This document shows, piece after piece, positions 22,197 to 62,020 of a stretch of DNA of 64,000 nt. Under the pieces are notes generated by a model. The model ran no database searches, was not told where the DNA came from, and saw nothing but the letters and a program-made list of their open reading frames with translations. How positions within the stretch are numbered: the stretch's first letter is position 1; each line of letters starts with the position of its first letter. Source of the stretch: Gammaproteobacteria bacterium (GTDB taxonomy: Bacteria > Pseudomonadota > Gammaproteobacteria > Ga0077536). The position numbers were made by a program, and so were the translations under genes. The stretch spans positions 13,171-77,170 of the forward strand of contig JBFWUN010000003.1 in assembly GCA_050247235.1 (NCBI GenBank), written 5' to 3'.

Positions 22197-22679
22197 ATGC
22201 CTTCGTTCGACATCGTGTCCGAAGTGGACCTCCACGAACTCACCAACGCGGTGGACCAGTCCAATCGCGAGATTGCGAACCGGTTCGATTTCAAGGGCAC
22301 GGGCGCCAAGGTCGAGCAGAACGCCCACGTGATGACGATCACCGCGCAGACGGATTTCCAGGTGAAGCAGGTCCTCGAGATCCTGCGGCTGAAGATCGCG
22401 AAGCGCGGGATCGACGTCGCCTGCCTCGAGGACGGTCCGCTGCACGTCGCGCTGAACGAGGCGCGCCAGACGCTGACGGCGCGCCACGGGCTGGACAAGG
22501 AGATCGGCAGGAAGGTCGTGAAGTTCATCAAGGACGGCGGCCAGAAGGTGCAGGCCCAGATCCAGGACGAGCAGGTGCGGGTGACTGGCAAGAAGCGCGA
22601 CGACCTGCAGGCCGTGATCGCGGCGCTGCGCGGTGCGAGCCTCGGCATGCCGCTGCAGTTCACGAACTTCCGGGACTGA
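22197..22679 (+). CDS. yajQ: YajQ-family (UPF0234) nucleotide / cyclic-di-GMP-binding protein
   Basis: 160 aa, MPSFDIVSEVDLHELTNAVDQSNREIANRFDFKG... SD GGAGAA 7 nt upstream. TACAAT -10-like box at 22159-22164. The ORF track N-terminal extension (from 21117) is rejected. Confidence 0.85.
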   Translation: MPSFDIVSEVDLHELTNAVDQSNREIANRFDFKGTGAKVEQNAHVMTITAQTDFQVKQVLEILRLKIAKRGIDVACLEDGPLHVALNEARQTLTARHGLDKEIGRKVVKFIKDGGQKVQAQIQDEQVRVTGKKRDDLQAVIAALRGASLGMPLQFTNFRD

Positions 22680-22889: not shown

Positions 22890-23234
22890 ATGCACGACGC
22901 ACTGCTCCTGCTCGGGATCGCGGGCGCCGCGGCCGGGGTGTGGTACTGGAGCGTGGCCGGGCGCGAACGGGTGCTCGCCATCAGCGCCGAGATCTGTCGC
23001 GATCTCGATGTGCAGCGGCTGGATGATTCGGTGGCGCTGCGCGGCGTGAAATGGCGGCGCGGCGCGGTGGGCGTGATCGAACGGCGCTACGAATTCGAAT
23101 TCAGCACCAACGGCCTCGATCGACGGCGCGGCGAGGTGGTGCTGCACGGTCTCGTCCTGCTGCGCGCGTCACTGGAGCTGCCGGACGGTCCACTCCTCAT
23201 CGACGTGGCCGCGGGCGCGCCCCGCGACGCCTGA
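22890..23234 (+). CDS. DUF3301-like small membrane protein
   Basis: 114 aa with an N-terminal TM helix. Characteristically paired with a CPXCG zinc-finger gene. Confidence 0.6.
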   Translation: MHDALLLLGIAGAAAGVWYWSVAGRERVLAISAEICRDLDVQRLDDSVALRGVKWRRGAVGVIERRYEFEFSTNGLDRRRGEVVLHGLVLLRASLELPDGPLLIDVAAGAPRDA

Positions 23235-23315: not shown

Positions 23316-26300
23316 TCAGTCGTCGTCGCGCAGCCGCGCGGCGAGTTCCTCGATCAGCGCCTGGTCATGCGCCTTCGCAGCGCTCCGCGCCGCCTGCGCG
23401 CGCTGCTTGATGCGCTCGATGTGTGCCTTCTGGTTCGCGAAGACGCGCTTGGAGGCCTCGCCGCCCGTCGAATCCTCCTGCTCGCGCAGCCATGCTTCGA
23501 TCTCCTGTTCGAAGCGGGCGCGGGAGGCGGTCTCTTCCTGGCGGTGATTTTCGAGGTTCTGCAGGTTGCGCGCCGCCGCGGCCTGCACGCGCAGCCGTGC
23601 CGCCTCGGCTGCTGCCGCCTGCGCCCGCGCTTCGTTGACTTCGGCCTCGATCGCGGCGGCATCCACCGCGAGCTGCGCTTCCCGCGCGGTGTGCTGGGCG
23701 CCGTCGCGCATGCGCGCCACCTGCGCCTCGCGCAGCTGGCTCTCGAGCTTGCCCTGCAGGGCGAGCGCCTGCTCCTGCGCGCGCTGCGCGTCCGCCAGTG
23801 CCGCGCGCAGCTCGGAGGCCTCGCTTTCGAGCCGCTCGCGCTCGAGTCGCAGTTTCTCCTCTTCGCGCTCGCGCAGCTGCTGATGTGACTGCTTGTACTC
23901 CTGGATGATGCGCTCGGCTTCTTCCGCGGCGGCGACTCTCGCGGCTTCCGCGGCCGCCTTCTCGCGCCGGGCCCGCTCCAGTTCCTCCGCGTTGCGCGCG
24001 AACTCGGCTTCGAGCTTGCGTCGCTCGCCATCCACCTTGGACTGGATCTCGTCGCGCAGCTTGCGCTCGAGTTCGAGCTGGCGCTGCTGCCGCGCCTCGG
24101 CGTCCCGCGCGCTCTCGGCGCGCGCATGCTCCACTTCGACCTGCAGCCGCTTGGCCTCGGCCAGCCGCTTCAACGCCTCTTCCGATTCCAGCTTCAGCCG
24201 TTCTCGCTCCTGCGTGAGCTGCTGCTCCGCCTCTTCCTTCATGCGCTGGAGACGCGCGAGTTCCTCGGCCTGCCACGCGTAGCTCTCTTCGAGCTTGCGT
24301 TCCTCCTCGCGCAGGCGGCGCTCGGCTTCCTCGCGCATGCGCTGGATCTGCTCTTCCTCGGCGAGGCGTCGCGCGGCGGCTTCGTCCTCGGCGCGGCGCT
24401 TTTCCTCTTCGATCTGAGACTTCAGGCGTTGCGCTTCTTCCCAGGTGCGCTGCGCGCGGGCGGCTTCCTCGGCCAGGCGCACCTGTTCTTCGGCGAGTTT
24501 GCGCGCCGAGTCCTGTTCCACCGCAATGCGTGCCGCCTCGGCTTCTTCGCGCATGCGCTGTGCACGCTCGACTTCCGCGTTGGCCGCCTGGATTTCGGCC
24601 AGCGCCTCGGCACGCCGGGCCTCGGCCTCCTGTTCGGCCTGCTGGCGTTCGCGTTCGGCCTGCGCCTTCAGCGCCTGTGCCTCCTCGAACGCCCGGCGTG
24701 CGCGTTCGGCTTCGTCCGCGATCCGCGTCTGTTCCTCGCGGATCCGCGCCTCGGCTTCCCGGGCCAGGTGTTCGCGGGCGGCCTGGTTCTCGGCTTTCAG
24801 CCGCTCCGCCTCTTCCAGCGCCTCCCGCATCCGCCGCGCTTCCTCCGCGAGCTGCGCCTGCTGCTCGCGGCTCCGCGCTTCGTTCTCGGCCTTGATCCGC
24901 TGGGCTTCCTCGAACGCCAGGCGAGCGGCTTCCGCGTCGGCGGCCAGCCGCGCCTGTTCTTCGCGCAGCTTCGCCTCGACTTCGCGGGTGGCGTGCTGGC
25001 GGGCGACCTCCGCCTCGGCCTTGATCCGCTCCGCTTCCTCGAGCGCCTCGTGCATGCGCTGCGCCTCGCGCGCGAGCTGATCCTGCTGTTCGCGCAGCGC
25101 CGCCTCCGACGCGGCCTTCAGACGCTCCGCTTCCTCGACGGCGGCCCGCGCACGCTCCGCTTCGCGCGCGATGCGCGCCTGTTCCTCGCGCAGCCGATCC
25201 TCCGCTTCGCGTGCGAGCCGGGCCTGCTCTTCCTGCAGCCGGGACTCGGCCTCGCGTGCGACGTGCTCGCGCATGGCCTCGGCTTCGGCCTTGACCCGCT
25301 GGGCCTCCTCGAGCGCGCGTCGCGCGTGCTCCGTCTCGGCAGCCAGCCGGTCCTGTTCCTCGCGCAGGCGCGCGTCGGCCTCGCGCGCCAGAGCGTCGCG
25401 CGCGGCTTCCGCTTCGGCCTTCAGCCGCTGGGTCTCCTCCCACGCGATCCGCGCCCGCGCCGCCTCGGCCTCGATCCGCGCCTGTTCCTCGCGCAGGCGC
25501 GCTTCGGCATCCTGCTGCATGTCGCGCCGCGCCGCTTCGACCTCGGCCTGCAGGCGACGCGCTTCCTCGAGCTGATGCGCGACGAGCTCCGCTTCCTCGA
25601 CCTCGCGCTCGCGCAACCGCGCCGCATTCGCCTCGGCCGCCCGCTGTTCGGTTTCGAGACGGGTGCGCAGCGCGGTCGCCTCGGCGGCGAGCGCCAGGCG
25701 TGTCTGTTCCGCCTCCGCCGCCAGCTTGGCCTTCTCGGCGGCCAGGCGTTCGCGGAGCTCGGTTTCCATCTGCGCGCGCGCCGCCTCGGCCTCCTGCCGC
25801 AGCCGCAGCGCCTCCGCGACTTTCTCGTTCGCCTCGCGAAGCTCTGCCGACTCCTGTTCGCGGACGCGCTCGGTCTGCGCGAGCGCCCGCAGCTTCTCTT
25901 CCTCGACCTGGGCCTTCAGCCGGCGCGCATGCTCGAGTGCCTGCCGGGCCTTCTCGGCATCCAGCGCCAACCGGGCGCGTTCGGCGTCGAGCTGGGACCT
26001 GGCGCGCTGCTCGGCTTCCACCCGGGCCTTCTCGGCCTGTTCCTTCAGCTTGCGCGCTTCCTCGAGCTGGATGTTCGCGCGCGCGAGCTCGGCCTTCAGC
26101 GCCTGCGCCCGCAGATCGGCGTCCAGCGGATCGGACGCCGGGGCCTCGGTGCGGGGCAGCCCGGCGCGCTCCGTCTCCGAACGCTGCGATGCCGGCACCA
26201 CCGCGCTGACGGGGATCGGGGTTACGACGTCGGTGGCGCGGCGGGCGGTCGGCCGGGTGGGCGCGGGCCTGGCGGGGGTGACTGGCGCGGCGGACGTGCC

Positions 26301-27377
26301 GCCGTTCGCGGTCTTCAGCACACCGTAGCGGGCCATGCCGCCGGCGAGGTAGTGCACGTCGAATCCGCGTTCCGAAAGCAGGAACGCCGCCACCGAGGAC
26401 CGCGAGCCGGTGTCGCAGCACACCACGTAGACTTTCGAGTGGTCCAGCCGCTCGGCGTGCATCCTGAGCGTGTTCAGCGGCAGGTTGAGACTGCCTTCGA
26501 TGCCACCTTCCTTGTGTTCCTCGGGAAACCGCACGTCCAGCCACAGCGCGCCCTGCTGCGCGACGATTCGCAGCGCTTCCTGGTAGGTGACGTCGCTCAG
26601 CAGGGGTTTCTTGATGAGCTCGACGAAGTCGTTCTTCGTCAGCCGCATGAGGACGCCTGCCGAAAGCATCACGACGGTCGCGTTGCGTCGCGCGTCTGCG
26701 ACCAGCGCTTCCTCGCCGAACGTGTCCCCGGGACCAAGCGTCGCGAGCTTGATCGGCGTCTTGCCCGACGCGATCTGGCGGCTCACCTGGCAGCGCCCCT
26801 GCTGTATCACGTAGTAGTAGTCGCCGACGTCCCCCTGCTTGACGACGACGTCGCCAGCCTTGAGTTCGATCGGTTCGAGGCTCGAGAAGATGCGCTGGAT
26901 GTTCGCCGCGGGCACCCGGCTGAACAGCTCCGACTGGAGCATGCGGGTCATCCAGTCGCCATCGTCCTCGGCCTCGATCTCGCTGACCCGCACCTCGTGC
27001 ACTTCGCTGACGCCGTCGAGCGCGAGCAGCTTGTCGAGCAGGTCGCGGCTCACGCGCAGCACGTTGACGTCGCTGACGGCCCGCGCGGAGAGCTGTCTCG
27101 GTTGCAGCTGGGCGAGCGGATGGACGGCGTCGGCCGTGCCGCCGACCAGCCGCTTCACGAGCTGCTGGCCGGAAAAGAGTTCGAGTCCGCCCTCGAGCAG
27201 GAAGAACGTGTTCTCGTCGCGGTCGCCTTCGTGGAAGACGTAATTGCCGCGCCGGAAACTCAGCACTTCGGCCTGCGCGAACAACTGCTGCCGCCGCGGC
27301 ACCGACAGGCCGTTGAGTGGCACCAGCATGCGCAGGACCTGCGCGAATTTCTCTTCGATGGCCACTGAGGCACTCAT
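23316..27377 (-). CDS. Giant cytoplasmic protein: 2x cyclic-nucleotide-binding (CAP effector) domains + rhodanese domain + ~900-aa Ala/Glu/Arg-rich repetitive coiled coil
   Basis: 1353-aa ORF. cNMP domains: FHEGDRDENTFFLLEGGLEL... and GPGDTFGEEALV...RNATVV. Rhodanese domain with active-site Cys (VVCCDTGSRS). Pro/Thr-rich linker. Then degenerate tandem ~75-aa (43+32) units of type EEAxRxKAEAEAAREHLAREAEARLREEQARLA. No TM segments. Confidence 0.85.
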   Translation of the reverse strand: MSASVAIEEKFAQVLRMLVPLNGLSVPRRQQLFAQAEVLSFRRGNYVFHEGDRDENTFFLLEGGLELFSGQQLVKRLVGGTADAVHPLAQLQPRQLSARAVSDVNVLRVSRDLLDKLLALDGVSEVHEVRVSEIEAEDDGDWMTRMLQSELFSRVPAANIQRIFSSLEPIELKAGDVVVKQGDVGDYYYVIQQGRCQVSRQIASGKTPIKLATLGPGDTFGEEALVADARRNATVVMLSAGVLMRLTKNDFVELIKKPLLSDVTYQEALRIVAQQGALWLDVRFPEEHKEGGIEGSLNLPLNTLRMHAERLDHSKVYVVCCDTGSRSSVAAFLLSERGFDVHYLAGGMARYGVLKTANGGTSAAPVTPARPAPTRPTARRATDVVTPIPVSAVVPASQRSETERAGLPRTEAPASDPLDADLRAQALKAELARANIQLEEARKLKEQAEKARVEAEQRARSQLDAERARLALDAEKARQALEHARRLKAQVEEEKLRALAQTERVREQESAELREANEKVAEALRLRQEAEAARAQMETELRERLAAEKAKLAAEAEQTRLALAAEATALRTRLETEQRAAEANAARLREREVEEAELVAHQLEEARRLQAEVEAARRDMQQDAEARLREEQARIEAEAARARIAWEETQRLKAEAEAARDALAREADARLREEQDRLAAETEHARRALEEAQRVKAEAEAMREHVAREAESRLQEEQARLAREAEDRLREEQARIAREAERARAAVEEAERLKAASEAALREQQDQLAREAQRMHEALEEAERIKAEAEVARQHATREVEAKLREEQARLAADAEAARLAFEEAQRIKAENEARSREQQAQLAEEARRMREALEEAERLKAENQAAREHLAREAEARIREEQTRIADEAERARRAFEEAQALKAQAERERQQAEQEAEARRAEALAEIQAANAEVERAQRMREEAEAARIAVEQDSARKLAEEQVRLAEEAARAQRTWEEAQRLKSQIEEEKRRAEDEAAARRLAEEEQIQRMREEAERRLREEERKLEESYAWQAEELARLQRMKEEAEQQLTQERERLKLESEEALKRLAEAKRLQVEVEHARAESARDAEARQQRQLELERKLRDEIQSKVDGERRKLEAEFARNAEELERARREKAAAEAARVAAAEEAERIIQEYKQSHQQLREREEEKLRLERERLESEASELRAALADAQRAQEQALALQGKLESQLREAQVARMRDGAQHTAREAQLAVDAAAIEAEVNEARAQAAAAEAARLRVQAAAARNLQNLENHRQEETASRARFEQEIEAWLREQEDSTGGEASKRVFANQKAHIERIKQRAQAARSAAKAHDQALIEELAARLRDDD
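24380..25460. repeat. Degenerate in-frame tandem coding repeats (~225-bp period) inside the coiled-coil region of the giant gene; coordinates approximate
   Basis: Periodicity inferred from the protein (alternating 43- and 32-aa units). It produces stop-free antisense and off-frame ORFs, e.g. the 1080-aa plus-strand shadow ORF at 24126..27368. Confidence 0.45.
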
Positions 27378-27519
27378 GGAGACAGCCAGCCCAGGTTGAT
27401 ACTCGCAGGGATCAGAAGCGGCGGCATCGTGCCGTCAGGCGCAATTAAAGCAGTACCGATCTGGTTCTGCCGTGCGGCTGCGGGGTCTTTGTGATAGCGG
27501 TCACGCATTCTTTTTCCCA

Positions 27520-27550: not shown

Positions 27551-27833
27551 GCGCGTATCGGCGACCGGCGCGGCCTCTGCAGCGGCGTGCTGAGCGCTGC
27601 GTCACAGCCTCGAGCCAGGCTGTGGTCCGGCCAGTCCCTGGCGGATGTCGGGCGTTGGATTCCGTGACGGATTATACGCACCCGCCCCGGCACGGCGAGG
27701 GTTCCTGGTCCGGCGGACGCGGTGGCCGGGTCCGGGGCGAGGCGTGCCGATGGGGGGAGGCCGGGAATGGGCGTAGAATGACCGCCCACGCGACAGGGCC
27801 GCTCCAGGCCCGCGCGAACGGGCGGGGACCTGG

Positions 27834-28040
27834 GTGAGCGACACCGAACACACATCGATCGCGCGGCGACTGTTCGATCTCGAGGCGCAGCATCGCGACC
27901 TCGATGAAGTCGTCGCGCATCTGACCGAGTCCGCGCGCGGCGACGAACTCCTGATCAGGCGCCTGAAGAAACGCAAGCTCCAGCTCAAGGACCAGATCGC
28001 GAAGCTGCGCAGCGCGCTCATTCCCGATCTCGACGCCTGA
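27834..28040 (+). CDS. DUF465/YdcH-like small coiled-coil protein
   Basis: 68 aa. GTG start with a GGGGA SD upstream. Confidence 0.6.
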   Translation: MSDTEHTSIARRLFDLEAQHRDLDEVVAHLTESARGDELLIRRLKKRKLQLKDQIAKLRSALIPDLDA

Positions 28041-28173
28041 TCTCCGACGCCCGCGAGAACAGGTCCTGGCGTGCGGCGTCGTCCCCGGGTGCGGGGCCCC
28101 GACGACGGCACGTGCCTTCGCGACAGGCCGGGCACGCGGCAGCATGACCGCGTACCGGCGATCGCCCCGTCAA

Positions 28174-28650
28174 TCAGGCGGCGCGGCTGTCCTCGTCGCG
28201 GGTGAAGACCGGTGTGCCGAACTGCTCGGTGAAGAACGTTTCGACCAGGCGGCGCGCCTTCGGGCGCAGCTCGAGGAAGCGGAAGCCGAGTACGCAGTCC
28301 CGCGCATGGTCGTCGTGACGGCAGTAGATCAGGCGCACGCCGATGGACAATGTCTGGGGGCCGTCGGCGAGCGGCAGAACGGCCGTCGCGTGCAGCAGCG
28401 GCTGGTTGTCCGGCCCGAGGCGGCCGCCGCGCGGATGGATCGTCTGCGCGGTGGCCATATTGCAGCGAACCTGCAGTCCGTCGACGGACAGGTTGGACAA
28501 CCGCGCGGCACAATGCTGACCGACACCATTGCGGAAAGCCACCGGGACCAGCATTTCGAGGCGCGGCGCAGCGCGCTGTTCACCGGGCATCGCGCCCTGC
28601 CAGTCGGGCACCGCACCCCCACCGGGGCGAATCTCATCCATCAAATTCAT
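28174..28650 (-). CDS. PilZ-domain (c-di-GMP-binding) protein
   Basis: The internal ATG at 28650 gives a 158-aa protein. RxxxR motif (QRAAPRLEM) and D/NxSxxG motif (LSNLSVDGLQV). The upstream Arg/Gly-rich extension in the ORF track is rejected. Confidence 0.65.
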   Translation of the reverse strand: MNLMDEIRPGGGAVPDWQGAMPGEQRAAPRLEMLVPVAFRNGVGQHCAARLSNLSVDGLQVRCNMATAQTIHPRGGRLGPDNQPLLHATAVLPLADGPQTLSIGVRLIYCRHDDHARDCVLGFRFLELRPKARRLVETFFTEQFGTPVFTRDEDSRAA

Positions 28651-28841: not shown

Positions 28842-29639
28842 TCAGCGCCGCGGCGACCAGTCCTCGGCCAGCGCTCGGGCCGCTTCGATCTCGTCCGGCG
28901 CCAACCGGCCGGAGAGCACGGTGGCGTTCTGCGCCGCGACCGCCAGTCCGGCGGCCGCCGCGACGCGGTACCACGCCAGCGCGCGGACGGGGTCGACAGG
29001 CACGCCTTCGCCCCGTTCGTACGCGGCGCCAAGCGCGTTCTGCGCGAGCGGCGAGCCTTCACGCGCGGCCTTTTCCCACCATTCGGCGGCGCGTGCCGGG
29101 TCGCGCGCGACCCCGAGTCCGCGCACGTGGAGGATGCCAAGGTTGTAGCCCGCATCGGGTTCGTGACCGGCGAAGGCCTGCTGCCACCACTGCTCGGCGG
29201 CCGCGTAATCGCGGCTCACGCCGTCCCCGTGGAAATGGAGCAGGCCAAGCTGCTGCGCCGAGCGCGCGCTGCCGTGCGCCGCGGCCTTCTCCAGCCAGTG
29301 CAGCGCACGTGCCGGGTCCCGTGCCACGCCGTCGCCCTGCAGGTACATGATCCCGAGGTTGTGCTCGGCTTTCGCGAACCCCTGGGCCGCGGCCTTCTCG
29401 AACCATGCCCGCGCACGCGCGGGGTCCGCGATCGTTCCCCACCCCTGGGCGTGCAGCACACCGAGCGTGTACTGCGCGGCCGCATCTCCGTCCGCCGCGG
29501 GCGCCGCGAGTGCCTGCAGGGCGAGACCGTAGTCGCCCGCCCGGAACGCCGCGAGACCGCGGGCGGCATCTTCCGCGGGCGCCGCGCGAATCGCCGCACA
29601 GGCGAGGCAGAAAAGGGCAATGGCCCACGGGCGTCGCAC
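28842..29639 (-). CDS. Secreted Sel1-repeat (TPR-like) protein
   Basis: Multiple Sel1 units (AQYxLGxxYxxGxGVxxDxxxAxxWxxKAA). A GTG start at 29639 yields the signal peptide RRPWAIALFCLACAAIRAAPA. Confidence 0.7.
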   Translation of the reverse strand: MRRPWAIALFCLACAAIRAAPAEDAARGLAAFRAGDYGLALQALAAPAADGDAAAQYTLGVLHAQGWGTIADPARARAWFEKAAAQGFAKAEHNLGIMYLQGDGVARDPARALHWLEKAAAHGSARSAQQLGLLHFHGDGVSRDYAAAEQWWQQAFAGHEPDAGYNLGILHVRGLGVARDPARAAEWWEKAAREGSPLAQNALGAAYERGEGVPVDPVRALAWYRVAAAAGLAVAAQNATVLSGRLAPDEIEAARALAEDWSPRR

Positions 29640-29823
29640 GCGCGATGCCGCGGCGTCACCGCGTTCCACGTTCAACGGCCGCACGGGAATTCCTCCGATA
29701 CCGGTTTCGTCCAGTATGCCCGCGATCCACGGGGCATGCGGCGTTCGACCCGGACCCGCGCGCACGGTTCCCGCGTCGCATGCTTTACAATGCCGACCTC
29801 TTCCCCAGCCAATGGAATCCCCC

Positions 29824-30681
29824 ATGTCGACAGCGCGCTTCACTGGCACCGACTCCTATGTCGCGACCGAAGACCTCATGATGGCGGTGAACGCCGCGAT
29901 CACGCTCGGCCGCCCGCTGCTGGTCAAGGGGGAACCCGGCACGGGCAAGACCATGCTGGCGGAAGAGATCGCGCGGTCGCTCGCTCGGCCGCTGATCCAG
30001 TGGCACATCAAGTCCACGACCAAGGCCGCGCGCGGGCTGTACGAGTACGATGCCGTGGCGCGCCTGCGCGACTCCCAGCTGGGCGACGATCGCGTGAAGG
30101 ACATCCACAACTACATCCTGAAGGGCAAGCTGTGGGAGGCGTTCGAGTCGGCTGTGCAGCCCGTGCTGCTGATCGACGAGATCGACAAGGCGGACATCGA
30201 GTTTCCGAACGACCTGCTGCAGGAACTCGACCGTATGGAGTTCTTCGTCTACGAGACGAAGGAGACGATCTCGGCCACGCAGCGGCCGATCATCATCATC
30301 ACCAGCAACAACGAGAAGGAGCTTCCGGACGCATTCCTGCGCCGCTGCTTCTTTCACTACATCCGCTTCCCGGACCAGGACACGATGGAGCAGATCGTCC
30401 GCGTGCACTACCCGGACATCAAGAAACGGCTGCTGGCGGAGGCCATGCAGTGCTTCTTCGAGCTGCGCGAACTTCCCGGCCTGAAGAAGAAGCCGTCAAC
30501 GTCGGAACTGCTGGACTGGATCAAGCTGCTCGTCGCCGACGACATCCCGCCGGAGGCGCTGCGCGAGAAGGACACCCGCAAGGCCATTCCCAAGCTCTAC
30601 GGCGCGCTGCTGAAGAACGAACAGGACATGCACCTCTTCGAGCGCCTGGTGTTCATGTCGCGGGGGCGTGGTGCTAACTGA
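29824..30681 (+). CDS. MoxR-family AAA+ ATPase (AAA_5; CbbQ/NorQ/CoxD-like)
   Basis: Walker A LLVKGEPGTGKT. Walker B VLLIDEIDKA. The internal ATG at 29824 gives 285 aa; the upstream extension is rejected. Confidence 0.9.
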   Translation: MSTARFTGTDSYVATEDLMMAVNAAITLGRPLLVKGEPGTGKTMLAEEIARSLARPLIQWHIKSTTKAARGLYEYDAVARLRDSQLGDDRVKDIHNYILKGKLWEAFESAVQPVLLIDEIDKADIEFPNDLLQELDRMEFFVYETKETISATQRPIIIITSNNEKELPDAFLRRCFFHYIRFPDQDTMEQIVRVHYPDIKKRLLAEAMQCFFELRELPGLKKKPSTSELLDWIKLLVADDIPPEALREKDTRKAIPKLYGALLKNEQDMHLFERLVFMSRGRGAN

Positions 30682-31855
30682 GCTCTTCTACCGGCTGCGC
30701 AAGGTCCAGGTTCCGGTTTCCATCACCGAGTTCCTGACCCTGATGGCGGCGCTGGAGGCCCGCATCGCGGGCTTCAGCGTGGACGACTTCTACTACCTCG
30801 CGCGCGCGACGCTGGTGAAGGACGAGCGCTACTTCGATCGCTTCGACCAGGTCTTCGGGGACTACATCCGCGGCCAGCAGACGATCTTCGAAGAGATCCT
30901 CGGTGAGATCCCGCTCGAATGGCTGCGCAAGCAGAAGGAGCTGAATCTCACGGACGAGGAGAAAGCGAAGATCGAGGCGCTCGGCGGCTGGGAGAAGCTG
31001 ATGGAGACGCTCCGCCAGCGGCTCGAAGAGCAGAAGAAGGCGCATCACGGCGGCAGCAAGTGGATCGGCACGGGCGGCACGTCGCCGTTCGGCGCATACG
31101 GGTACAACCCGGAAGGCGTCCGCATCGGCCAGGACAAGGGCCGCCAGGGCCGCGCGGTCAAGGTGTGGGACAAGCGCGAGTACCAGAACCTGGATGACCA
31201 GGTCGAGCTCGGCACCCGCAACATCAAGGTGGCGCTGCGCAAGCTGCGCCGCTTCGCGCGCGAGGGGGCCGAGGAGGAACTCGACCTCGACGATACGATC
31301 CGCTCGACCGCCCGCCAGGCGGGCATGCTCGACATCAAGCTCGTGCCGGAACGCCGCAATACCACCAAGTTCCTGCTGTTCCTGGACGTGGGTGGATCGA
31401 TGGACCCGCACGTCAAGATCTGCGAGGAGCTGTTTTCGGCGGCGCGCGCCGAGTTCAAGCACCTGGAACACTTCTACTTCCACAACTTCATCTACGAGAC
31501 GGTCTGGCGCGACAACCACATGCGCAACAACGTGCGCTTTCCCACCCAGCAGCTGATGAACACCTACAGCGCAGATCACAAGGTGGTGTTCGTCGGCGAC
31601 GCGACGATGAGCCCGTACGAGATCCAGGCGGTGGGCGGCAGCATCGAGCACTGGAACGAGGAATCGGGCGCCACCTGGGTCGCGCGGCTGCTGGCACTGT
31701 ATCCGTACGCGGTGTGGCTGAATCCGCAGCCGGAGGATTACTGGAGCTACATCCCATCGATCGGGATGGTCAAGCAGCTGTTCGCCGATCGCATGTTCCC
31801 GCTGACGATCGACGGTCTCGAGCGCGCGATGAAGGCGCTGAAGAAAGCGCATTGA
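30668..31855 (+). CDS. VWA-domain protein, CoxE-like (MoxR partner)
   Basis: 395 aa. VWA_CoxE-like with a MIDAS-containing region (LLFLDVGGSM). Overlaps the MoxR gene end. Confidence 0.85.
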   Translation: MVLTELFYRLRKVQVPVSITEFLTLMAALEARIAGFSVDDFYYLARATLVKDERYFDRFDQVFGDYIRGQQTIFEEILGEIPLEWLRKQKELNLTDEEKAKIEALGGWEKLMETLRQRLEEQKKAHHGGSKWIGTGGTSPFGAYGYNPEGVRIGQDKGRQGRAVKVWDKREYQNLDDQVELGTRNIKVALRKLRRFAREGAEEELDLDDTIRSTARQAGMLDIKLVPERRNTTKFLLFLDVGGSMDPHVKICEELFSAARAEFKHLEHFYFHNFIYETVWRDNHMRNNVRFPTQQLMNTYSADHKVVFVGDATMSPYEIQAVGGSIEHWNEESGATWVARLLALYPYAVWLNPQPEDYWSYIPSIGMVKQLFADRMFPLTIDGLERAMKALKKAH

Positions 31856-32053
31856 GACGGCATCCCGGGGCATGCGGGCCGGTGATGCACCCGCGTGAAC
31901 CCCACCCTCGGAATCCGCGCCGCTGACCGTGGGACTCGGACACCCTTGCAACAGGGGACGCCGCGGACGCGCGCACCGGCGCACTCCGCAGTGCTGAGCG
32001 CATCAGAGGCTGTCCCGCCCGTAGGCTCGGGTGTGAACGGCGCCAGCATCCGC

Positions 32054-33070
32054 GTGCGTCGCGCGTGCCGGTGGCTGCTGGCGTGGGCGCTCGCGATCGG
32101 CGCCGCGGGCGCGGGCGCGATCATGCCGGCCGAACTTGCGATCATCATCAATTCCGATGACCCCCTGAGCGTAGCGCTCGGCGAGGAATATCGCGCGGCG
32201 CGCGAGGTGCCCGCGACGAACGTGCTGAAGATCCCGCTCGGACCTCCGCGCGCGGTGCTGCCGCCGGACGACTTCGCCCGCGCGTGGGAGACGCTGCGCC
32301 GGCGGCTGCCCGATTCCGTCCAGGCGCTGGCGCTCGCGTGGCGGCTGCCATACCGCGTGGGCTGCATGTCCGTGACGAGCGCGTTCGCGTTCGGCTACGG
32401 CACGCGCTTCTGCGCGAGCGGCTGCAGACCCACCGCGCCCAACCCGTACTTCGACCAGCCGTCGCACCGGCCGTACACCGATTTCCGCGTGCGGCCCGCG
32501 ATGCTGCTTGCGGCGGCGACGCTCGCCAACGGACGCCGCCTGATCGAACGCGGGCTGCGTAGTGACGGCCTCGCACCGGCCGGCCGGGCCTATCTCGTGG
32601 AGACGCCCGACCGGGCGCGCGGCGTACGCGCGCGCGCCTACCCGCTGATCCGAGCAACGTTCGGCGCGCGCTACCCCGTGGAACTCGTGCGGGCCGCGGG
32701 CATCCGCGATCGCTACGACGTGATGTTCTACTTCACCGGCGCGACCCACGTCCCGCACCTCGACACCCTGGGATTCCTGCCGGGCGCGCTGGCCGACCAC
32801 CTGACCTCGGCGGGCGGGCAGCTCGACGGCAGCACGCAGATGAGCGCGCTGCGCTGGCTGGAAGCCGGCGCGACCGGCAGCTACGGGACGGTTGTCGAAC
32901 CGTGCAACTTTCCGCAGAAGTTTCCCGACCCGGCACTCGCGATGAAGTATTACCTCGCGGGGGACACGCTCGTGGAGGCTTACTGGAAGAGCGTCGTGTG
33001 GCCCGGCCAGGGGGTTTTCATCGGCGAGCCGCTGGCCGCACCGTTCGCATCCGGTCCGCCGTCGCGCTGA
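32054..33070 (+). CDS. Hypothetical secreted protein
   Basis: A GTG start at 32054 gives the signal peptide RRACRWLLAWALAIGAAGAGA. ~338 aa, no family recognised. Start uncertain. Confidence 0.5.
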   Translation: MRRACRWLLAWALAIGAAGAGAIMPAELAIIINSDDPLSVALGEEYRAAREVPATNVLKIPLGPPRAVLPPDDFARAWETLRRRLPDSVQALALAWRLPYRVGCMSVTSAFAFGYGTRFCASGCRPTAPNPYFDQPSHRPYTDFRVRPAMLLAAATLANGRRLIERGLRSDGLAPAGRAYLVETPDRARGVRARAYPLIRATFGARYPVELVRAAGIRDRYDVMFYFTGATHVPHLDTLGFLPGALADHLTSAGGQLDGSTQMSALRWLEAGATGSYGTVVEPCNFPQKFPDPALAMKYYLAGDTLVEAYWKSVVWPGQGVFIGEPLAAPFASGPPSR

Positions 33071-33339
33071 GCGCGGCGGCGGGTGTCGTCCCGGGAGTGC
33101 CCCTGCGCGACCGGATCTGTCGCCGTGAGACGTCACCCGCGCGCGCCGGCGCCGCGCGCGCGCCGGCGCGCCCTCAGCTTCGCGGCCGGGCGGTCGCTAA
33201 CCCGGCGTGAAGCGGTTCACGCTTTTGCCCCGGAAATCCGCAGTCCGTCGCATTCCGTTCACCCGACACCGGCACCTTGGCCGCGTTGGAACATCTCTTG
33301 CGACGGAGGGGGCACGCTGACCAGGGAGAAGATACAACG

Positions 33340-33639: not shown

Positions 33640-34410
33640 ATGAGCGCCCCCAGACTCGAGGCCGAATTCGCGGCGTTCGCCACCGGCGACTCTGACGTCC
33701 TGGCCGGCGCGCTGCTGGTGTCGCGGCTGCTCGACCCGGCCACCGACGAAGCGTGGTGCCGCCAGGAGCTGGCGCGCCTTGCCGCCGCCGTCCGCGCTCC
33801 CGGAGACGCGCAGGCGGTGCTCGAGACGCTGGCCGCCGCCGGGTTCGCCGGCGCGGATGAATACTATGAGTCGCGCAACAGCGCGCTGTCGTACGTTCTG
33901 AAGGCGCGGCGCGGCATCCCGATCAGCCTGGCCGCGGTCCTGATTGCGCTGTGCGACACGCTCGGCCTGCCCGCGCACGGCATCAACTTCCCCGGTCACT
34001 TCCTGGTGCGCATCGACGACCAGCTGGTGGACCCCTTTCTGCTCGACGTCGTGTACGACGACGATCTCGACCAGCGGCTCGAAGCGGCGGGTGTCCCGGC
34101 CGCGCAGGCGCTGAGGGTCGCGGGACCGCGCGACATGGTGCTCCGCATGCTGAACAACCTGCGCGGCCTCGCGATGGGCCACGGCAACCACGCCCTCGCG
34201 CTCGAGTACACGGACTACCAGCTCCTGCTGACCGAGGAACGCTACGTGCTACGGATGGTCCGGGCCGATCTCTGGCGTTCGCTGGGCGTGCCCGGCATGG
34301 TGCAGGTCGAACTGCGGCACGCGCTCGCCGACGCGCCCGACGACGCGACGCGCGATCAGATCGCGCTGCGGCTCGAGCAACCCGATCCGCCGCGGCCGCG
34401 GCTGCACTGA
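33640..34410 (+). CDS. Transglutaminase-like/TPR family protein (SirB1-like, UPF0162)
   Basis: 256 aa. Transglutaminase-core-2-like N-terminal region and a C-terminal TPR-like helical region. Confidence 0.65.
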   Translation: MSAPRLEAEFAAFATGDSDVLAGALLVSRLLDPATDEAWCRQELARLAAAVRAPGDAQAVLETLAAAGFAGADEYYESRNSALSYVLKARRGIPISLAAVLIALCDTLGLPAHGINFPGHFLVRIDDQLVDPFLLDVVYDDDLDQRLEAAGVPAAQALRVAGPRDMVLRMLNNLRGLAMGHGNHALALEYTDYQLLLTEERYVLRMVRADLWRSLGVPGMVQVELRHALADAPDDATRDQIALRLEQPDPPRPRLH

Positions 34411-36545: not shown

Positions 36546-37610
36546 GTGCCCTACCGCTCACCGTACCAGATAGACAATCGCCGGATCCGCTTTGCGGTCG
36601 TCGGCTGCGGACGCATTTCGGATCGGCACTTCGATGCACTGAAATCGCATGCCGAGCGCGCCGAGCTCGTCGCCGTGTGCGACACGGACAAAGCGGCGCT
36701 CGCCAGGACGGCGGCCGATCTCGGGGTCGAAGGCTACGACAGCCTGGACTCGCTGCTGAGCCGGTCCGAGGCCGACGTCGTGGTGCTGTGCACGCCGAGC
36801 GGCCTGCACCCGTCGCAGACCATCCAGGTGGCGCGCGCCGGGCGCCACATCGTGACGGAGAAACCGATGGCCACCCGGCTCGCCGACGGCAAGCGGATGG
36901 TGGCGACCTGCGACGACGAGCACGTGCACCTGTTCGTGGTCAAGCAGAACCGGCTCAACCCCACCTTGCAGCTCGTCAAGCGGGCGGTCCGCAAGAAGCG
37001 GTTCGGGCGCATCTACATGGTGAACGTGAACGTGTTCTGGACGCGCCCGCAGTCCTACTACGATTCCTCGCGCTGGCGTGGCACCTGGGAGTTCGACGGC
37101 GGCGCGTTCATGAACCAGGCGAGCCACTACGTCGACCTCCTCGACTGGCTGATCGGCCCCATCGAGAGCGTGCACGCGTACACCTCCACGCTCGAGCGCA
37201 ACATCGAGGTGGAGGACTCGGGGGTCGCGAACATCAAGTGGCGCTCGGGGGCGCTCGGTTCGATCAACGTCACGATGCTGACCTATCCGAAGAACCTGGA
37301 AGGCTCGATCACCATTCTCGGCGAGAAGGGGACGGTGCAGGTGGGCGGCGTGGCGGTGAACGAGATCAAGCACTGGGAGTTCGCGGAGCCCGACGAGGAC
37401 GACGCCAAGGTCGAGGACGCGAGCTACGGCACCGTGTCGGTCTACGGCATCGGGCACCCGGTCTACTACGACAACGTGATCCGGGTGCTGCGGGGCGAGG
37501 CGAGTCCCGAGACGGACGGTCGCGAGGGGCTGCGCTCGCTGGAGACGCTGATCGCGATGTACACGTCCTCGCGCGACGGCCGGCGCGTGTCGCTGCCGCT
37601 GGAGTACTGA
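36546..37610 (+). CDS. wbpB: Gfo/Idh/MocA-family oxidoreductase, WbpB/WlbA-like (UDP-GlcNAcA 3-dehydrogenase)
   Basis: N-terminal Rossmann ([12 protein letters not shown]). Gene order B-D-E and neighbours support the call. Confidence 0.85.
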
Positions 37611-37614
37611 CGCG

Positions 37615-38196
37615 ATGGCGAACTACACCGTGCACCCCAGCGCGATCGTCGACGACGGCGCGCAGATCGGCGAAGGCACGCGCATCTGGCACTGGGTGCA
37701 CGTCAGCGGCGGCGCCCGCATCGGCGCGCGCTGCTCGCTCGGCCAGAACGTCTACGTGGGCAACCGCGTGACGATCGGCGACAACGTCAAGATCCAGAAC
37801 AACGTGTCGGTCTACGACAACGTCACGCTGGAGGACGACGTGTTCTGCGGCCCGAGCATGGTGTTCACGAACGTCTACAACCCGCGTTCGGCGGTCTCAC
37901 GCAAGGACGAGTACCGGGACACGCGGGTGAAGCGCGGTGCGACGCTCGGCGCGAACTGCACCATCGTGTGCGGCGCCACGATCGGCGAGTACGCGTTCGT
38001 CGGGGCCGGCGCGGTGGTCAACCGCGACGTGCCGGCCTTCGCGCTGATGGTCGGCGTCCCCGCGCGGCAGGCCGGCTGGATGAGCCGCTTCGGCGAACGG
38101 CTCGCGCTGCCGCTCACGGGCGACGGCGAAGCGACCTGCCCTCACACCGGCGACCGCTACGTGCTGCGCAACGGCGTGTGCACGCTCGCGCCCTGA
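37615..38196 (+). CDS. wbpD: Left-handed beta-helix N-acetyltransferase, WbpD/WlbB-like
   Basis: 193 aa with hexapeptide repeats throughout. Confidence 0.8.
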
Positions 38197-38220
38197 ATCC
38201 AACCCCGAGACCGAACCCCG

Positions 38221-39321
38221 ATGGAATTCATCGACCTGAAGACGCAGTACCGCCAGCTCAAGCCGGAAATCGACCGCCGGATCCAGGCGGTGCTGGATCA
38301 CGGCGCCTACATCATGGGCCCCGAAGTCGCCGAGTGCGAAGCGGCGCTCGCGGCCTACACCGGGTCCCGGCACTGCATCACCGTCGCGAGCGGCACCGAT
38401 GCGCTGCTGATCGCGATGATGGCGCTCGGGGTCAAGGCCGGCGACGAGATCATCACCACGCCGTTCACGTTCATCGCGACCGGCGAGATGATCGCGCTGA
38501 TCGGCGCGCAGCCGGTGTTCGTCGACATCGAGCCGCGCACCTGCAATCTCGACCCCGCGCAGGTCGAAGCCGCGATCACGCCGCGCACGAAAGCCATCAT
38601 GCCGGTCAGCCTGTACGGGCAGTGTGCCGACTACGACGCGATCAATGCCATCGCGTCGAAACACGGCCTCCCGGTGATCGAGGACGCCGCGCAGAGCTTC
38701 GGCGCGACCTACAAGGGCCGCAGGTCGTGCGCGCTGACCACGATCGGCTGCACGAGCTTCTTCCCGTCCAAGCCGCTCGGCTGCTACGGCGACGGCGGGG
38801 CGTGCTTCACCGACGACGATGCGCTCGCGAAGCTGATGCGCGAAATCCGCGTGCACGGGCAGGATCGGCGCTATCACCACCCGGTGATCGGCGTGAACGG
38901 CCGGATGGACACCCTGCAATGCGCGGTGCTGCTCGCGAAGATGCCGACGTTCCCGCAGGAGGTGGCCGCGCGCGAGCGGATCGGCGCGCGCTATTCGGCG
39001 CTCGTCCGCGAGCATGCGCCGGGTGCGACCCCGCCGACCATCGAATCCCACAACACGTCGGTGTACGCGCAGTACACCGTCGAGGTGGGTGACCGCGAGG
39101 GCGTGCAGGAACGGCTGAAGGCGGCGGGGATCCCCACCGCCGTGCATTACCCGACGCCGCTGCACCTGCAGCCCGCGTTCGCGCACCTCGGGCTCGGGCG
39201 CGGGGCGTTTCCCGTCGCCGAGGCAGCCGGTGCGCGCGTGATGAGCCTGCCGATGCATCCGTTTCTTGACGAGGCGACGCAGCTGCGTGTCGTCGACAGC
39301 CTGCGTGTCGCGCTCGCTTGA
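38221..39321 (+). CDS. wbpE: DegT/DnrJ/EryC1-family PLP aminotransferase, WbpE/WlbC-like
   Basis: 366 aa. Canonical DegT family with a PLP-lysine region. Confidence 0.85.
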   Translation: MEFIDLKTQYRQLKPEIDRRIQAVLDHGAYIMGPEVAECEAALAAYTGSRHCITVASGTDALLIAMMALGVKAGDEIITTPFTFIATGEMIALIGAQPVFVDIEPRTCNLDPAQVEAAITPRTKAIMPVSLYGQCADYDAINAIASKHGLPVIEDAAQSFGATYKGRRSCALTTIGCTSFFPSKPLGCYGDGGACFTDDDALAKLMREIRVHGQDRRYHHPVIGVNGRMDTLQCAVLLAKMPTFPQEVAARERIGARYSALVREHAPGATPPTIESHNTSVYAQYTVEVGDREGVQERLKAAGIPTAVHYPTPLHLQPAFAHLGLGRGAFPVAEAAGARVMSLPMHPFLDEATQLRVVDSLRVALA

Positions 39322-48010: not shown

Positions 48011-49432
48011 ATGACTATGTCCAAGCCACGCGTCTACGACCTTATCCGGCGCATATTGCCGCGGCCTATGCGCCGCTTGGCAGCTATGGCGCTTGGTGGC
48101 GTGCGACGCTGCATCAGTTTGGCCTGGAGGGGGGTTGGATTCTTCGTCGCACAGGGCCAAGGCGTCACCTCCTCCGCCGAGTTGGTCACCGCGCCGACGT
48201 TGGGCAAGCGAACTGCCTGGGTGATCTCCTTCACCGGGGTTTCGAATGAACCGCGGGTGCTGCGCCAGACCCAGGCGCTGCTGTCAGAAGGTTGGCGCGT
48301 GGTGGTGGTCGGCTACGATGGCCATTCGCCGCGTCCGACGGAATGGAATTTCGTACGGTTGCGGGATCGCGCGAGGCACGCGTCGCGCTTCTCCTTCGCG
48401 CTACTGCGCGCGCAGCGCGCGCTGGGGCGAATCCTGTTCATGAATGCGCATCGATCTCCTGCGTTACGTTCGTTCGGCGCCCGCCTCTATTACGACGCGA
48501 TTCCGAACTGGCGAGAGAATCTCAGGCAGACAATGCGCATCGCGCGCCAGAATCCGCAACTTGCGGCGAATCTCGTTCTCGCACACGACTGGCACACAAG
48601 TCCCGTTGGATGGCGCCTTTCCCGGTATTTCCGCTGCCCCTTGTCGATTGATTGCCACGAGTATGCCCGGGGCCAGTACCTGCACGATCCAAAGTGGGTC
48701 CAGGAGCAGCAGCCGTTCGTCGTGGGAATGCTCGATTACTACCTGTCCCGTGCCGATCTGGTGACCACGGTCTGCGAGGGCATTGCCGGTTTGCTCGACC
48801 GCGAGCAGCGCCTGAAGCAGCCGGCGGTGGTGGTTCGCAGCGTGCCGCGCTACGAAAAACAGGTCTTCAGACCCTGCGGCAACCAGATAGTCGTTCTCTA
48901 CCACGGCGATGTTTCGTATGTTCGCGGCCTTCATAAGGCGGTAAGATCCATGCCCCTCTGGCGACCCGAGTTCCGACTGCACATCAGGGGTGCGGGAGAC
49001 CCCGACTACATCGCGAGCCTGCAGCGGATTGCGGCAGAGTCGGGAGTCGCAGATCGCCTGAGTTTCGAAGGACCCGTGCCGTTCAACGAGATAGTCGGGG
49101 CGGCGAATCGTGCGGACATCGGCTACTTCGTCCACAAGGATGTGTCGCCGCAGAAGCGTTTCGTGCTGCCGAACAAGTTCTTCGAGTACATCATGGCCGG
49201 GCTGGCTCTCTGCGTCAGCGATCTACCGGAAATGGCCCGCATCGTGCGCCGATACGACCTCGGCCTGCTCGTCGACGAGTACGACGAGCCTTCGATTGCC
49301 CGTGTCATCAACGGCTTCAGCCGCGACTCTATTGACCGCTACAAACGGGCGGCTCTTGAAGCGGCCGCGGTTCTGAACTGGGAAGCGGAACAACGAGCGA
49401 TGTTAGACGCGTACGCCCAGATAACAGGATAG
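48011..49432 (+). CDS. Glycosyltransferase family 4 (GT-B, RfaB-like)
   Basis: C-terminal GT1 domain with the EX7E-like region (FVLPNKFFEYIMAGLAL). Confidence 0.8.
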   Translation: MTMSKPRVYDLIRRILPRPMRRLAAMALGGVRRCISLAWRGVGFFVAQGQGVTSSAELVTAPTLGKRTAWVISFTGVSNEPRVLRQTQALLSEGWRVVVVGYDGHSPRPTEWNFVRLRDRARHASRFSFALLRAQRALGRILFMNAHRSPALRSFGARLYYDAIPNWRENLRQTMRIARQNPQLAANLVLAHDWHTSPVGWRLSRYFRCPLSIDCHEYARGQYLHDPKWVQEQQPFVVGMLDYYLSRADLVTTVCEGIAGLLDREQRLKQPAVVVRSVPRYEKQVFRPCGNQIVVLYHGDVSYVRGLHKAVRSMPLWRPEFRLHIRGAGDPDYIASLQRIAAESGVADRLSFEGPVPFNEIVGAANRADIGYFVHKDVSPQKRFVLPNKFFEYIMAGLALCVSDLPEMARIVRRYDLGLLVDEYDEPSIARVINGFSRDSIDRYKRAALEAAAVLNWEAEQRAMLDAYAQITG

Positions 49433-58716: not shown

Positions 58717-58729
58717 GGCGCATATCATC

Positions 58730-62007: not shown

Positions 62008-62020
62008 CACGCCCCGGCTC

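Follow-up and report, generated by a model that had tools for sequence, protein, structure and literature searches.

A predicted cyclic nucleotide-responsive effector with tandem CNB domains, a rhodanese domain and a long helical rod in a gammaproteobacterial contig

A gene located at positions 23316..27377 (minus strand) of the 64,000-nucleotide stretch of gammaproteobacterial contig JBFWUN010000003.1 analysed here (hereafter the window) encodes, from an ATG start, a protein of 1353 amino acids (aa), in which two cyclic nucleotide-binding domains (CNB-A and CNB-B) and a rhodanese domain are followed by a disordered linker and a long helical rod. This architecture is read from the list of open reading frames (ORFs), the translation, Pfam and the single-ORF orthologues. 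The protein is most readily understood, at a probability of about 0.5 for the reading as a whole, as a soluble cytoplasmic second-messenger effector, that is to say, a cyclic nucleoside monophosphate (cNMP)-responsive, non-DNA-binding effector or scaffold equipped with a thiol/persulfide site. It lacks a DNA-binding domain and so does not belong to the CRP-type transcription factors, whatever the "CRP-like" name under which it is found in databases may suggest.

The integrity of the gene is well supported. In the preliminary description of this DNA, a 1353-aa ORF had been proposed and a frameshift joining two genes had been considered as a possible refutation; the ORF is confirmed as one intact gene, and the orthologues at the related loci (designated L001, L002 and so on), namely those of L001–L008, L011 and L013–L016, are likewise single ORFs with matching N-terminal and C-terminal blocks. 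The antisense shadow ORF of 1080 aa that had been noticed at the same time was also found, at 24126..27368 of the plus strand; it is not a gene, and its G+C content at the three codon positions (GC1/2/3) is 0.86/0.44/0.81, a coding-like profile, beside 0.81/0.44/0.86 for the true minus-strand frame. A second shadow, an out-of-frame ORF of 1059 aa, lies on the minus strand of the same region. The idea that a sequencing frameshift fused two genes, or that the antisense ORF is the real gene, could draw on this coding-like profile and on the repeat-rich, ~72% GC character of the region, but it is refuted: the N-terminal module and the conserved C-terminal domain share one frame here and in every orthologue examined, in independent assemblies, the architecture is common to 962 homologues, and all homology and domain evidence falls on the minus-strand frame of the gene, leaving the antisense frame without homology support. 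The two shadow ORFs of more than 1000 aa, together with the generic "CRP-like" names, make the locus an annotation hazard.

The N-terminal module (residues 1–355) begins with CNB-A at about residue 8. CNB-A covers approximately residues 8–121 (27015..27356, minus strand) and CNB-B approximately residues 141–262 (26592..26957, minus strand). Two cNMP_binding stretches (PF00027) are found by Pfam with an E-value of 1.3e-31, and the eight-stranded beta-barrel fold of CNB domains is detected both by profile and by structure. In the PDB sequence search, the module matches the tandem CNB domains of PKG and of the regulatory subunit of protein kinase A (PKA-R) with E-values down to 6e-25, and Foldseek places it with the tandem CNB-A/B of PKG I-beta and PKA RI-alpha at an E-value of about 3e-19; the fold matches also include NtcA, FNR and the cAMP-independent trypanosome PKA-R with bound nucleosides. 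AlphaFold2 (AF2) was run on monomers only, that is, on an 804-aa homologue (68-sequence alignment) and on residues 154–1353 of the window protein (64-sequence alignment). In the homologue, the predicted local distance difference test (pLDDT) exceeds 90 for residues 5–355, CNB-A included, and in the window protein CNB-B and the rhodanese domain are modelled in the same way. The two CAP-effector domains claimed in the preliminary description are thus borne out by Pfam, by PDB sequence matches and by AF2 with Foldseek, and the Pfam scan proposed there returned both the two cNMP_binding domains and the rhodanese domain.

The two CNB domains differ in their phosphate-binding cassettes. The invariance of binding and catalytic residues was read from an alignment of 64 homologues anchored on CNB-B and the rhodanese domain. 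In CNB-B the cassette is complete, FGEEALVADARRNAT (F220-G-E-E-A-L-V-A-D-A-R-R231-N-A-T234, nucleotides 26676-26720): F220, G221, E222, E223, L225 and N232 are invariant, and R231 is conserved in at least 90% of the sequences. In CNB-A the cassette is degenerate and reads GGTADAVHPLAQLQPRQLSARA, in which the Arg-x-x-Ser is kept and the Gly-Glu expected 9-10 residues before the Arg is missing; the stretch "HPLAQLQPRQLSARA" at residues 86–100, also without Gly-Glu, is nearly invariant across the family. CNB-A therefore appears, from its residues, to be a conserved but non-canonical site, and the missing Gly-Glu makes it probable that cyclic nucleotide is bound by CNB-B only. The residue that follows the cassette Arg is Ala in PKA, Thr in PKG, and Ser in CAP and many bacterial domains. 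The invariant Asn at this place in CNB-B (N232) is unusual, and for that reason the ligand of CNB-B could differ from cAMP.

The rhodanese domain (PF00581, residues 266-350, 26328..26582 of the minus strand) is matched by Pfam with an E-value of 1.8e-12, and the rhodanese fold is confirmed. Its six-residue loop, C321-D-T-G-S-R-S327, is of the C-D-x-G-x-R-S type and is opened by C321 (codon 26415-26417), which is invariant in the 64 aligned homologues and at least 90% conserved in the 68-sequence alignment; G324 is invariant as well, and D322, R326 and S327 are at least 90% conserved. Together with the Pfam match, the invariant C321 upholds the catalytic-Cys rhodanese of the preliminary description, and the loop is, by its residues, of the sulfurtransferase type. 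Among NCBIfam models, PspE/GlpE-like rhodanese matches were obtained below threshold (34 bits, against an equivalog cutoff of 102 bits), and the PDB sequence search matched the rhodanese domains of CoA-disulfide and persulfide reductases. In the AF2 model of the homologue, CNB-B directly abuts the rhodanese domain without a linker. Downstream follows a Pro/Ala/Thr-rich linker of about 65 aa (approximately residues 357–422, 26112..26309, minus strand), which is predicted to be disordered, with pLDDT below 50 in both AF2 models, and is poorly conserved except for the short motif PIP-x-S...SE-x-E; in the homologue, residues 361–417 are disordered and are then followed by four long helices.

The remaining ~930 residues (423–1353; 23319..26111, minus strand) form, according to AF2 and their periodicity, an amphipathic helical rod rich in Ala, Glu and Arg. 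Residues 441–1353 contain 24% Ala, 22% Glu and 16% Arg; over residues 441–1030 these three residues together make up 66%, large hydrophobic residues make up 15%, and there are 0.22 opposite-charge i/i+4 pairs per residue. In the rod, charged residues account for ~47% and Ala for 25%. The absence of a membrane anchor, as had been supposed, agrees with the hydropathy profile of the protein, whose highest 19-residue Kyte-Doolittle mean is 1.21. An expanded repeat array occupies approximately residues 600–990 (24408..25580, minus strand) and is built of 43- and 32-aa units anchored by the motif [A/W/L/F]EEAxR[LIV]KAE, which recurs at residues 439, 482, 604, 647, 690, 748, 780, 823, 855, 898 and 980 with spacings of 43 and 32 aa. 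Residue identity in the tail is autocorrelated most strongly at shifts of 75 aa (z 6.2) and 43 aa (z 5.3), and on the DNA, TRF reports periods of 225, 129 and 96 bp; both the degenerate ~75-aa (43+32) units and the ~225-bp DNA period anticipated earlier are thereby recovered.

The packing of these helices deserves separate attention. A single coherent Kyte-Doolittle hydropathy period of 3.58 residues runs over all 930 residues of the rod, with a power of 17, where the 95th percentile of shuffled sequences is 8.1 and none of 200 shuffles reached the observed value; in the family profile the signal lies at 3.52-3.60 residues. Simple heptad scoring of the rod is weak, and the period of 3.58 stands against 3.50 for a heptad. 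Every two turns or so a Leu, Ile or Val position is conserved, with Ala taking the alternate core positions, and because 43 aa correspond to 12 turns and 32 aa to 9 turns at this period, duplications of the units keep the Leu/Ala hydrophobic seam in register. In the AF2 model, eight helices of 44-147 aa are predicted (423–569, 589–715, 726–813, 847–961, 976–1083, 1100–1224, 1230–1305 and 1307–1350); only the last three have pLDDT values of 80-85, and the places where they break fall on Gly residues and agree with those in the model of the homologue. The helix breaks inside the repeats may be artefacts of monomer folding. The low confidence in the repeats and their odd breaks are compatible with more than one packing mode: the helices may form a dimeric coiled coil or antiparallel hairpins, or stay in part a single helix. 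The tail is concluded to be a series of long amphipathic helices, suited either to a coiled coil of long pitch or to an antiparallel bundle, and is probably neither a canonical heptad coiled coil nor a single alpha-helix (SAH) domain. Of the ~900-aa repetitive Ala/Glu/Arg coiled coil of the preliminary description, the repetitive, A/E/R-rich, predicted helical and amphipathic character holds, but the term "coiled coil" is soft (15% large hydrophobics, period 3.58), and the last ~383 aa are a conserved, family-specific domain.

This C-terminal helical domain (residues 971–1353; 23319..24467, minus strand) is delimited by phmmer, by conservation and by the confidence of its last three helices. 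No Pfam family was matched up to an E-value of 10 by residues 350–1353, and PDB phmmer found no sequence related to the rod; the fold searches were dominated by globular domains, and the rod is not represented in their matches. A word-indexed search with the C-terminal 354 aa gave 5 fragments only, owing to low-complexity words, and exhaustive phmmer was used instead: searched with the last 383 aa, 1.84 billion representatives yielded only 140 proteins, nearly all of which matched at the C-terminal end of 750-1200-aa proteins, and the domain by itself corresponds to 140 clusters at 50% identity. When Pfam was applied to ten distant matches, all 6 of the full-length ones (691-864 aa) carried CNB and rhodanese domains; the four shorter ones (370-597 aa), probably fragments, carried at most rhodanese. 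This restriction to the CNB-rhodanese architecture indicates that the last ~380 aa are a genuine family-specific domain and not a low-complexity coiled coil; on the strength of these searches, the C-terminal ~383 aa would be a helical domain new to both Pfam and PDB.

The protein is not an isolated case. At least 962 significant homologues were found in the database search, under generic names only and almost all from uncultured Gammaproteobacteria, and all 120 homologues among the matches listed carry PF00027 and PF00581 in proteins of 793-1221 aa. The earlier statement that the family is an unrecognised one therefore stands insofar as no characterised member was found, but the protein is not a one-off. 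In the full-length alignment, the N-terminal module and the start of the helical part, DADLRAQALKAELARANIQLEEA, are conserved; over residues ~480-970, more than half of the homologues show gaps, which would make the repeats an insertion missing from the majority; and the C-terminal block 970–1353 is again well conserved, with the motifs ESYAWQAEEL, ERRKLEAEFARNAEELERA...AAEAAR.AAAEEAERII.EYK and ILANQKAHLERIK.RA. Orthologues measure 1272-1307 aa in L001–L006, 972-1051 aa in L007, L008 and L011, and 804-897 aa in L013–L016. At 1353 aa, with ~10 extra 43/32-aa units, the window protein is the longest seen, and it is so because these repeats have expanded; the suggestion that repeat number varies among orthologues is accordingly correct, the range from 804 to 1353 aa lying in the 43/32-aa repeats. 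The sample names of the loci suggest metagenome-assembled genomes (MAGs) from groundwater and glacier-fed streams, among others. The records of L001 (CAMATU010000001.1) and L006 (CAZKRY010000001.1) bear the titles of "Klebsiella pneumoniae" and "uncultured Klebsiella sp." MAGs; in gene content and in their ~59% GC they fit other unclassified Gammaproteobacteria MAGs, so these labels look wrong. In the literature, no characterised member of the CNB-CNB-rhodanese-rod family was found; the pairing of CNB and rhodanese appears only in a census table, where rhodanese is one of several domains linked to CNB in the "Other_bacterial" group (Kannan et al. 2007, PMC2246266).

Upstream of the gene, a CRP/Vfr-type box, CGTGA-CCGCTA-TCACA (27490..27505, minus strand), lies 113-128 bp before the ATG and was read by eye in the 456-bp upstream region. 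Both the box and the -10 element described below emerged from reading the sequence and comparing the loci. In the window, GTGA-N6-TCAC occurs 4 times against 0.74 expected. The same box stands 114-190 bp upstream of the family gene in L001–L009, L011, L012, L014 and L015, with two copies ~42 bp apart in L011, L012 and L015 and a perfect consensus, TGTGAATTCGCTCACA, in L014. In ~300 kb of loci, 15 of the 24 GTGA-N6-TCAC matches are such upstream sites, although the upstream regions make up less than 1% of the sequence. When 12 upstream regions were aligned, their mean identity was 46%, yet the block AATGCGTGAyCrcTATCACAAAG is almost invariant, and a second conserved block, TTGCTTTAAT, stands at a fixed distance from it. 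The latter has the appearance of an extended -10 of the form TG-n-TTTAAT, which in the window is TGcTTTAAT at 27444..27452 of the minus strand, its spacing having been counted from the sequence, and alignment columns T108, T109, G110, T112, A116 and T117 are nearly invariant. In orthologues with as little as ~45-50% protein identity, box and extended -10 are retained at a fixed spacing amid diverged flanking DNA. The textbook position of a class I CRP site (TGTGA-N6-TCACA) is -61.5, or else -71.5 and so on. With the start site placed by the -10, the midpoint of the box CGTGACCGCTATCACA falls ~60.5 bp upstream, which suggests a class I CRP-type geometry, and the gene appears to be a target of a CRP/Vfr/Clp-type regulator.

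Some further observations concern the same DNA. A generic promoter and terminator scan of the window gave no sigma-70 promoter and no terminators above chance. A perfect TATAAT occurs in "GCGTATAATCCGTCAC" (27670-27695, minus strand), upstream of the CRP-type box and directed toward the gene; it is kept in L003 (at the start of 3821-3845), the distance to the box in the window contains ~140 extra bases, and it may be a second promoter. Another conserved GTGA-N6-TCAC site is found at 33207-33220 of the window, as well as at L001 1619-1632, L002 631-644, L006 1934-1947 and L011 2097-2110; in the window it is intergenic, after a 391-aa gene (31895-33070) and before a transglutaminase-like gene (33640-34410). 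The match at 22329-22342 lies inside yajQ, also in L001 and L002, and probably reflects coding conservation and not a binding site.

More constant companions of the gene than the neighbouring YajQ and PilZ genes are the DUF465 gene, which is the family's most constant neighbour, a second paralogue and the CRP-type box. In most genomes the second, shorter paralogue adjoins the long one; it has 813-875 aa, ~52% identity in the N-terminal module and the same domains. It is divergent in L001, L007, L011, L012 and L015 and in tandem in L014, with coordinates L001 6865-9312 (-), L007 6860-9301 (-), L011 6681-9308 (-), L014 10969-13440 (+) and L015 4743-7202 (-). DUF465 heads the operon of the shorter paralogue in relatives and stands immediately ahead of a family member, in the same orientation, at L012 5313-5519, L014 10734-10940, L015 7243-7449 and L016 7694-7915. 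In the window, no copy of the shorter paralogue is present next to the long gene or elsewhere in the 64 kb, and it is also absent at L003. A DUF465 gene of 68 aa (27834..28040, plus strand; PF04325, E-value 6.9e-13) is divergent from the long gene, and only 133 bp separate it from the stop codon of the PilZ gene. It thus appears that the short paralogue has been lost from the window and that an intact DUF465 gene has been left orphaned. The recurrent pairing suggests that the long and short paralogues form a heteromeric pair. In the literature, no function was found for DUF465. Two minus-strand ORFs, 27602-28513 and 27672-28145, were considered as genes and rejected; they are shadow frames of DUF465 on the plus strand.

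On this basis the following mechanism is proposed. A CRP/Vfr-type regulator would activate the class I promoter and hence expression of the gene. CNB-B would bind cyclic nucleotide, most likely cAMP, and, as happens in PKA-R and Epac, binding would bring about a conformational change, here of the CNB-rhodanese module. The change might gate either the reactivity of the rhodanese Cys, used for relaying or sensing persulfide, or the interaction with a partner. The rod could oligomerise and place the sensor heads on a scaffold, and in most relatives it would probably pair with the adjacent shorter paralogue. The filament or scaffold function put forward in the preliminary description is plausible. 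A much bolder proposal, put forward only as a speculation that is rather improbable as a whole, is that the family constitutes a new class of bacterial cAMP effector, in which a CRP-controlled system of two rod paralogues with DUF465 as a small partner would form a cytoplasmic scaffold or filament, whose heads integrate the cyclic-nucleotide level (through CNB-B) with the sulfane-sulfur or redox state (through the rhodanese Cys), giving a structural cAMP output distinct from transcription, and in which the non-heptad 43/32-aa repeat sets an evolvable rod length.

Several points weigh against the effector reading. CNB-A is without the cassette Gly-Glu and CNB-B has an invariant and unusual Asn (N232) after its Arg; AF2 confidence is 50-75 in the repeats, which the monomer model breaks without Gly or Pro; and large hydrophobic residues make up only ~15% of the rod. 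On the side of regulation, L013 and L016, which hold the most distant members, have no CRP box ahead of the gene, no CRP gene lies within the 64-kb window, and the transcription start is itself deduced from the -10. Finally, no ligand, enzymatic, oligomeric or localisation data were found in the literature for any member. Part of this evidence can be turned toward the view that the CNB domains are pseudo-receptors, which bind no cyclic nucleotide and serve another ligand or protein interaction, in which case the protein would not be a second-messenger effector. CNB-A lacks the Gly-Glu and is all the same the most conserved stretch of the protein, the Asn in CNB-B is invariant, and CNB folds with other ligands are known, as the PDB matches to nucleoside-bound trypanosome PKA-R, NtcA and FNR recall; but every canonical cassette residue, F-G-E-x-A-L...R-x-A-T, is kept in CNB-B, and a cAMP circuit would agree with the conserved CRP-type box, which leaves this view unlikely. 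A defence effector of Pycsar type, in which a CNB domain is joined to a TIR or transmembrane effector beside a cyclase in a defence island, was also considered and rejected: the synteny is stable and of housekeeping type, and the sole PADLOC match was weak and to the CNB part only (E-value 3.9e-6).

The remaining alternatives turn on where the output lies. If the protein were a cyclic nucleotide-regulated sulfurtransferase, the rhodanese domain would be the output, CNB-B would switch its catalysis, and the tail would be a stalk for oligomerisation or spacing with no scaffold role. The invariant CDxGxRS loop, the catalytic nature of the closest rhodanese matches (PspE, GlpE, TSTD1 and the rhodanese domains of persulfide reductases) and the direct contact between CNB-B and the rhodanese domain all speak for this, whereas a passive stalk is hard to reconcile with a rod that makes up ~70% of the protein and includes a strongly conserved 380-aa C-terminal domain, never seen apart from the N-terminal module in the full-length matches scanned; moreover, no sulfur-metabolism gene is conserved next to the gene in the clade of the window. 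Such a sulfurtransferase is possible, with the balance of evidence tilted against it. It is less easily credited that the tail is largely a single charge-stabilised helix or flexible spacer, of SAH type or like TolA domain II; such a tail would serve as a molecular ruler that sets how far the sensor head stands from a docking domain at the C-terminus. Its composition over residues 441–1030, with few large hydrophobics and the i/i+4 charge pairs given above, would suit such a helix, as would the weak heptad score, the fact that AF2 confidence is lowest in the repeats, and a repeat number, hence a rod length, that differs between lineages. Known SAH domains, however, have ~70-80% charged residues against the ~47% of the rod, and the amphipathic 3.58 period is coherent across the whole region, with Leu, Ile or Val about once per two turns and Ala between, a seam that SAH domains lack. 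The rod thus shows neither the very high Glu, Lys and Arg content nor the seamless surface by which SAH domains are recognised, and this alternative is improbable.

The stable synteny, of housekeeping type, counts in favour of the effector reading. The gene order in the window is a PreP-type M16 peptidase (-), a HAD hydrolase (-), YajQ (+), DUF3301 (+), the gene described here (-), DUF465 (+), PilZ (-), a Sel1-repeat protein (-), an AAA ATPase (+) and a VWA/CoxE-like protein (+). YajQ (DUF520; 22200..22679, plus strand; Pfam E-value 9.7e-61) is a conserved neighbour by synteny, and DUF3301 (22890..23234, plus strand), recognised by Pfam and synteny, is convergent with the 3' end of the gene. 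The PilZ-domain protein (28174..28650, minus strand), also recognised by Pfam, probably starts at M109 of a longer ORF; its cyclic di-GMP-binding motifs RxxxR (QRAAPR) and NxSxxG (NLSVDG) are intact, the 266-aa ORF in the list runs into the Sel1 gene and has probably been extended too far, and its orthologues have 153-155 aa. The order is conserved in L001–L009, L011, L012 and L015, loosely kept in L016 and absent in L013 and L014, from which it follows that the link with YajQ and PilZ is synteny at the level of the clade and not of the family. The second-messenger neighbourhood that had been pointed out is therefore real insofar as both genes lie close by, but it does not extend to the family as a whole.

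A few features of the window stand apart from the gene. The AAA ATPase and VWA (CoxE-like) pair at 29620-31855 (plus strand) is 88-93% identical to the copies in L001–L006, far more conserved than Sel1, PilZ or the CNB-rhodanese gene, and always adjoins Sel1-PilZ in the clade. Between ~40000 and 64000, GC falls from ~0.69 to 0.52-0.62, and this stretch contains glycosyltransferases (48011-49432, 60787-62007 and 61892-63172), an MBOAT acyltransferase (51404-52597) and a HisF-like protein (58688-59491), preceded by sugar-modifying genes at 36546-39321; it looks like an island of polysaccharide or O-antigen type, possibly acquired horizontally. Rfam and tRNA scans of the window found nothing, and there was no match to a plasmid origin.

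Compared with known systems, the N-terminal module shares the tandem CNB-A/CNB-B arrangement of PKA R subunits and PKG. In contrast to them, the protein has no kinase domain or kinase partner (no kinase domain was found in it or in its neighbours), no inhibitor sequence and no N-terminal docking/dimerisation domain; its CNB-A lacks the Gly-Glu, and its output is a rhodanese domain and a 930-aa helical rod. With CRP, Vfr and Clp it has the CNB fold in common and not the C-terminal helix-turn-helix (HTH) domain, no HTH family being matched up to an E-value of 10 over residues 350–1353, and the database name "CRP-like cAMP-binding protein" is for this reason misleading. The rhodanese domains of GlpE, PspE, TSTD1 and the persulfide and CoA-disulfide reductases are standalone or parts of enzymes, while the one described here is embedded in a signalling protein. 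Bacterial proteins that combine a sensor with a rod or coiled coil include FrzS and AglZ of Myxococcus and the coiled-coil-rich crescentin, FilP and Scy. They follow the same logic of a small N-terminal signalling domain and a rod of several hundred residues, through which oligomerisation or localisation would be mediated; they have, however, no sequence relationship to the present protein, whose sensor is CNB plus rhodanese and not a receiver domain and whose period is 3.58 and not a clean heptad.

By description, the closest bacterial analogy is CbpA of Pseudomonas aeruginosa. CbpA reportedly has one degenerate and one functional CNB-like domain and Vfr/cAMP-controlled expression, and is said to be a small protein with neither a rhodanese domain nor a helical rod. 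The degenerate/canonical CNB pair and the CRP-type box of the present gene parallel these traits. In the later articles that cite the original study, CbpA is presented as a polar cAMP-binding protein that is neither CRP-like nor transcriptional (Endoh & Engel 2009, cited in PMC11139211, PMC3019171), and a review describes CRP as almost the only route of cAMP action and names CbpA as a rare exception (PMC11139211). Besides CRP/Vfr, known bacterial receptors of cAMP are very few. The present family is a candidate for a non-transcriptional or structural arm of cAMP signalling and for an interplay of cyclic nucleotides with sulfur or redox state, in that it combines a canonical cNMP site, a reactive-Cys rhodanese domain, a large novel helical domain and a conserved CRP-type promoter and is widespread in environmental Gammaproteobacteria. 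What is new here is the conserved CRP/Vfr-type box with its extended -10, the association with the paralogue and DUF465, and the 3.58-residue hydropathy period; as a putative non-transcriptional cNMP effector the family is not categorically new, but its proposed helical output domain is a new one.

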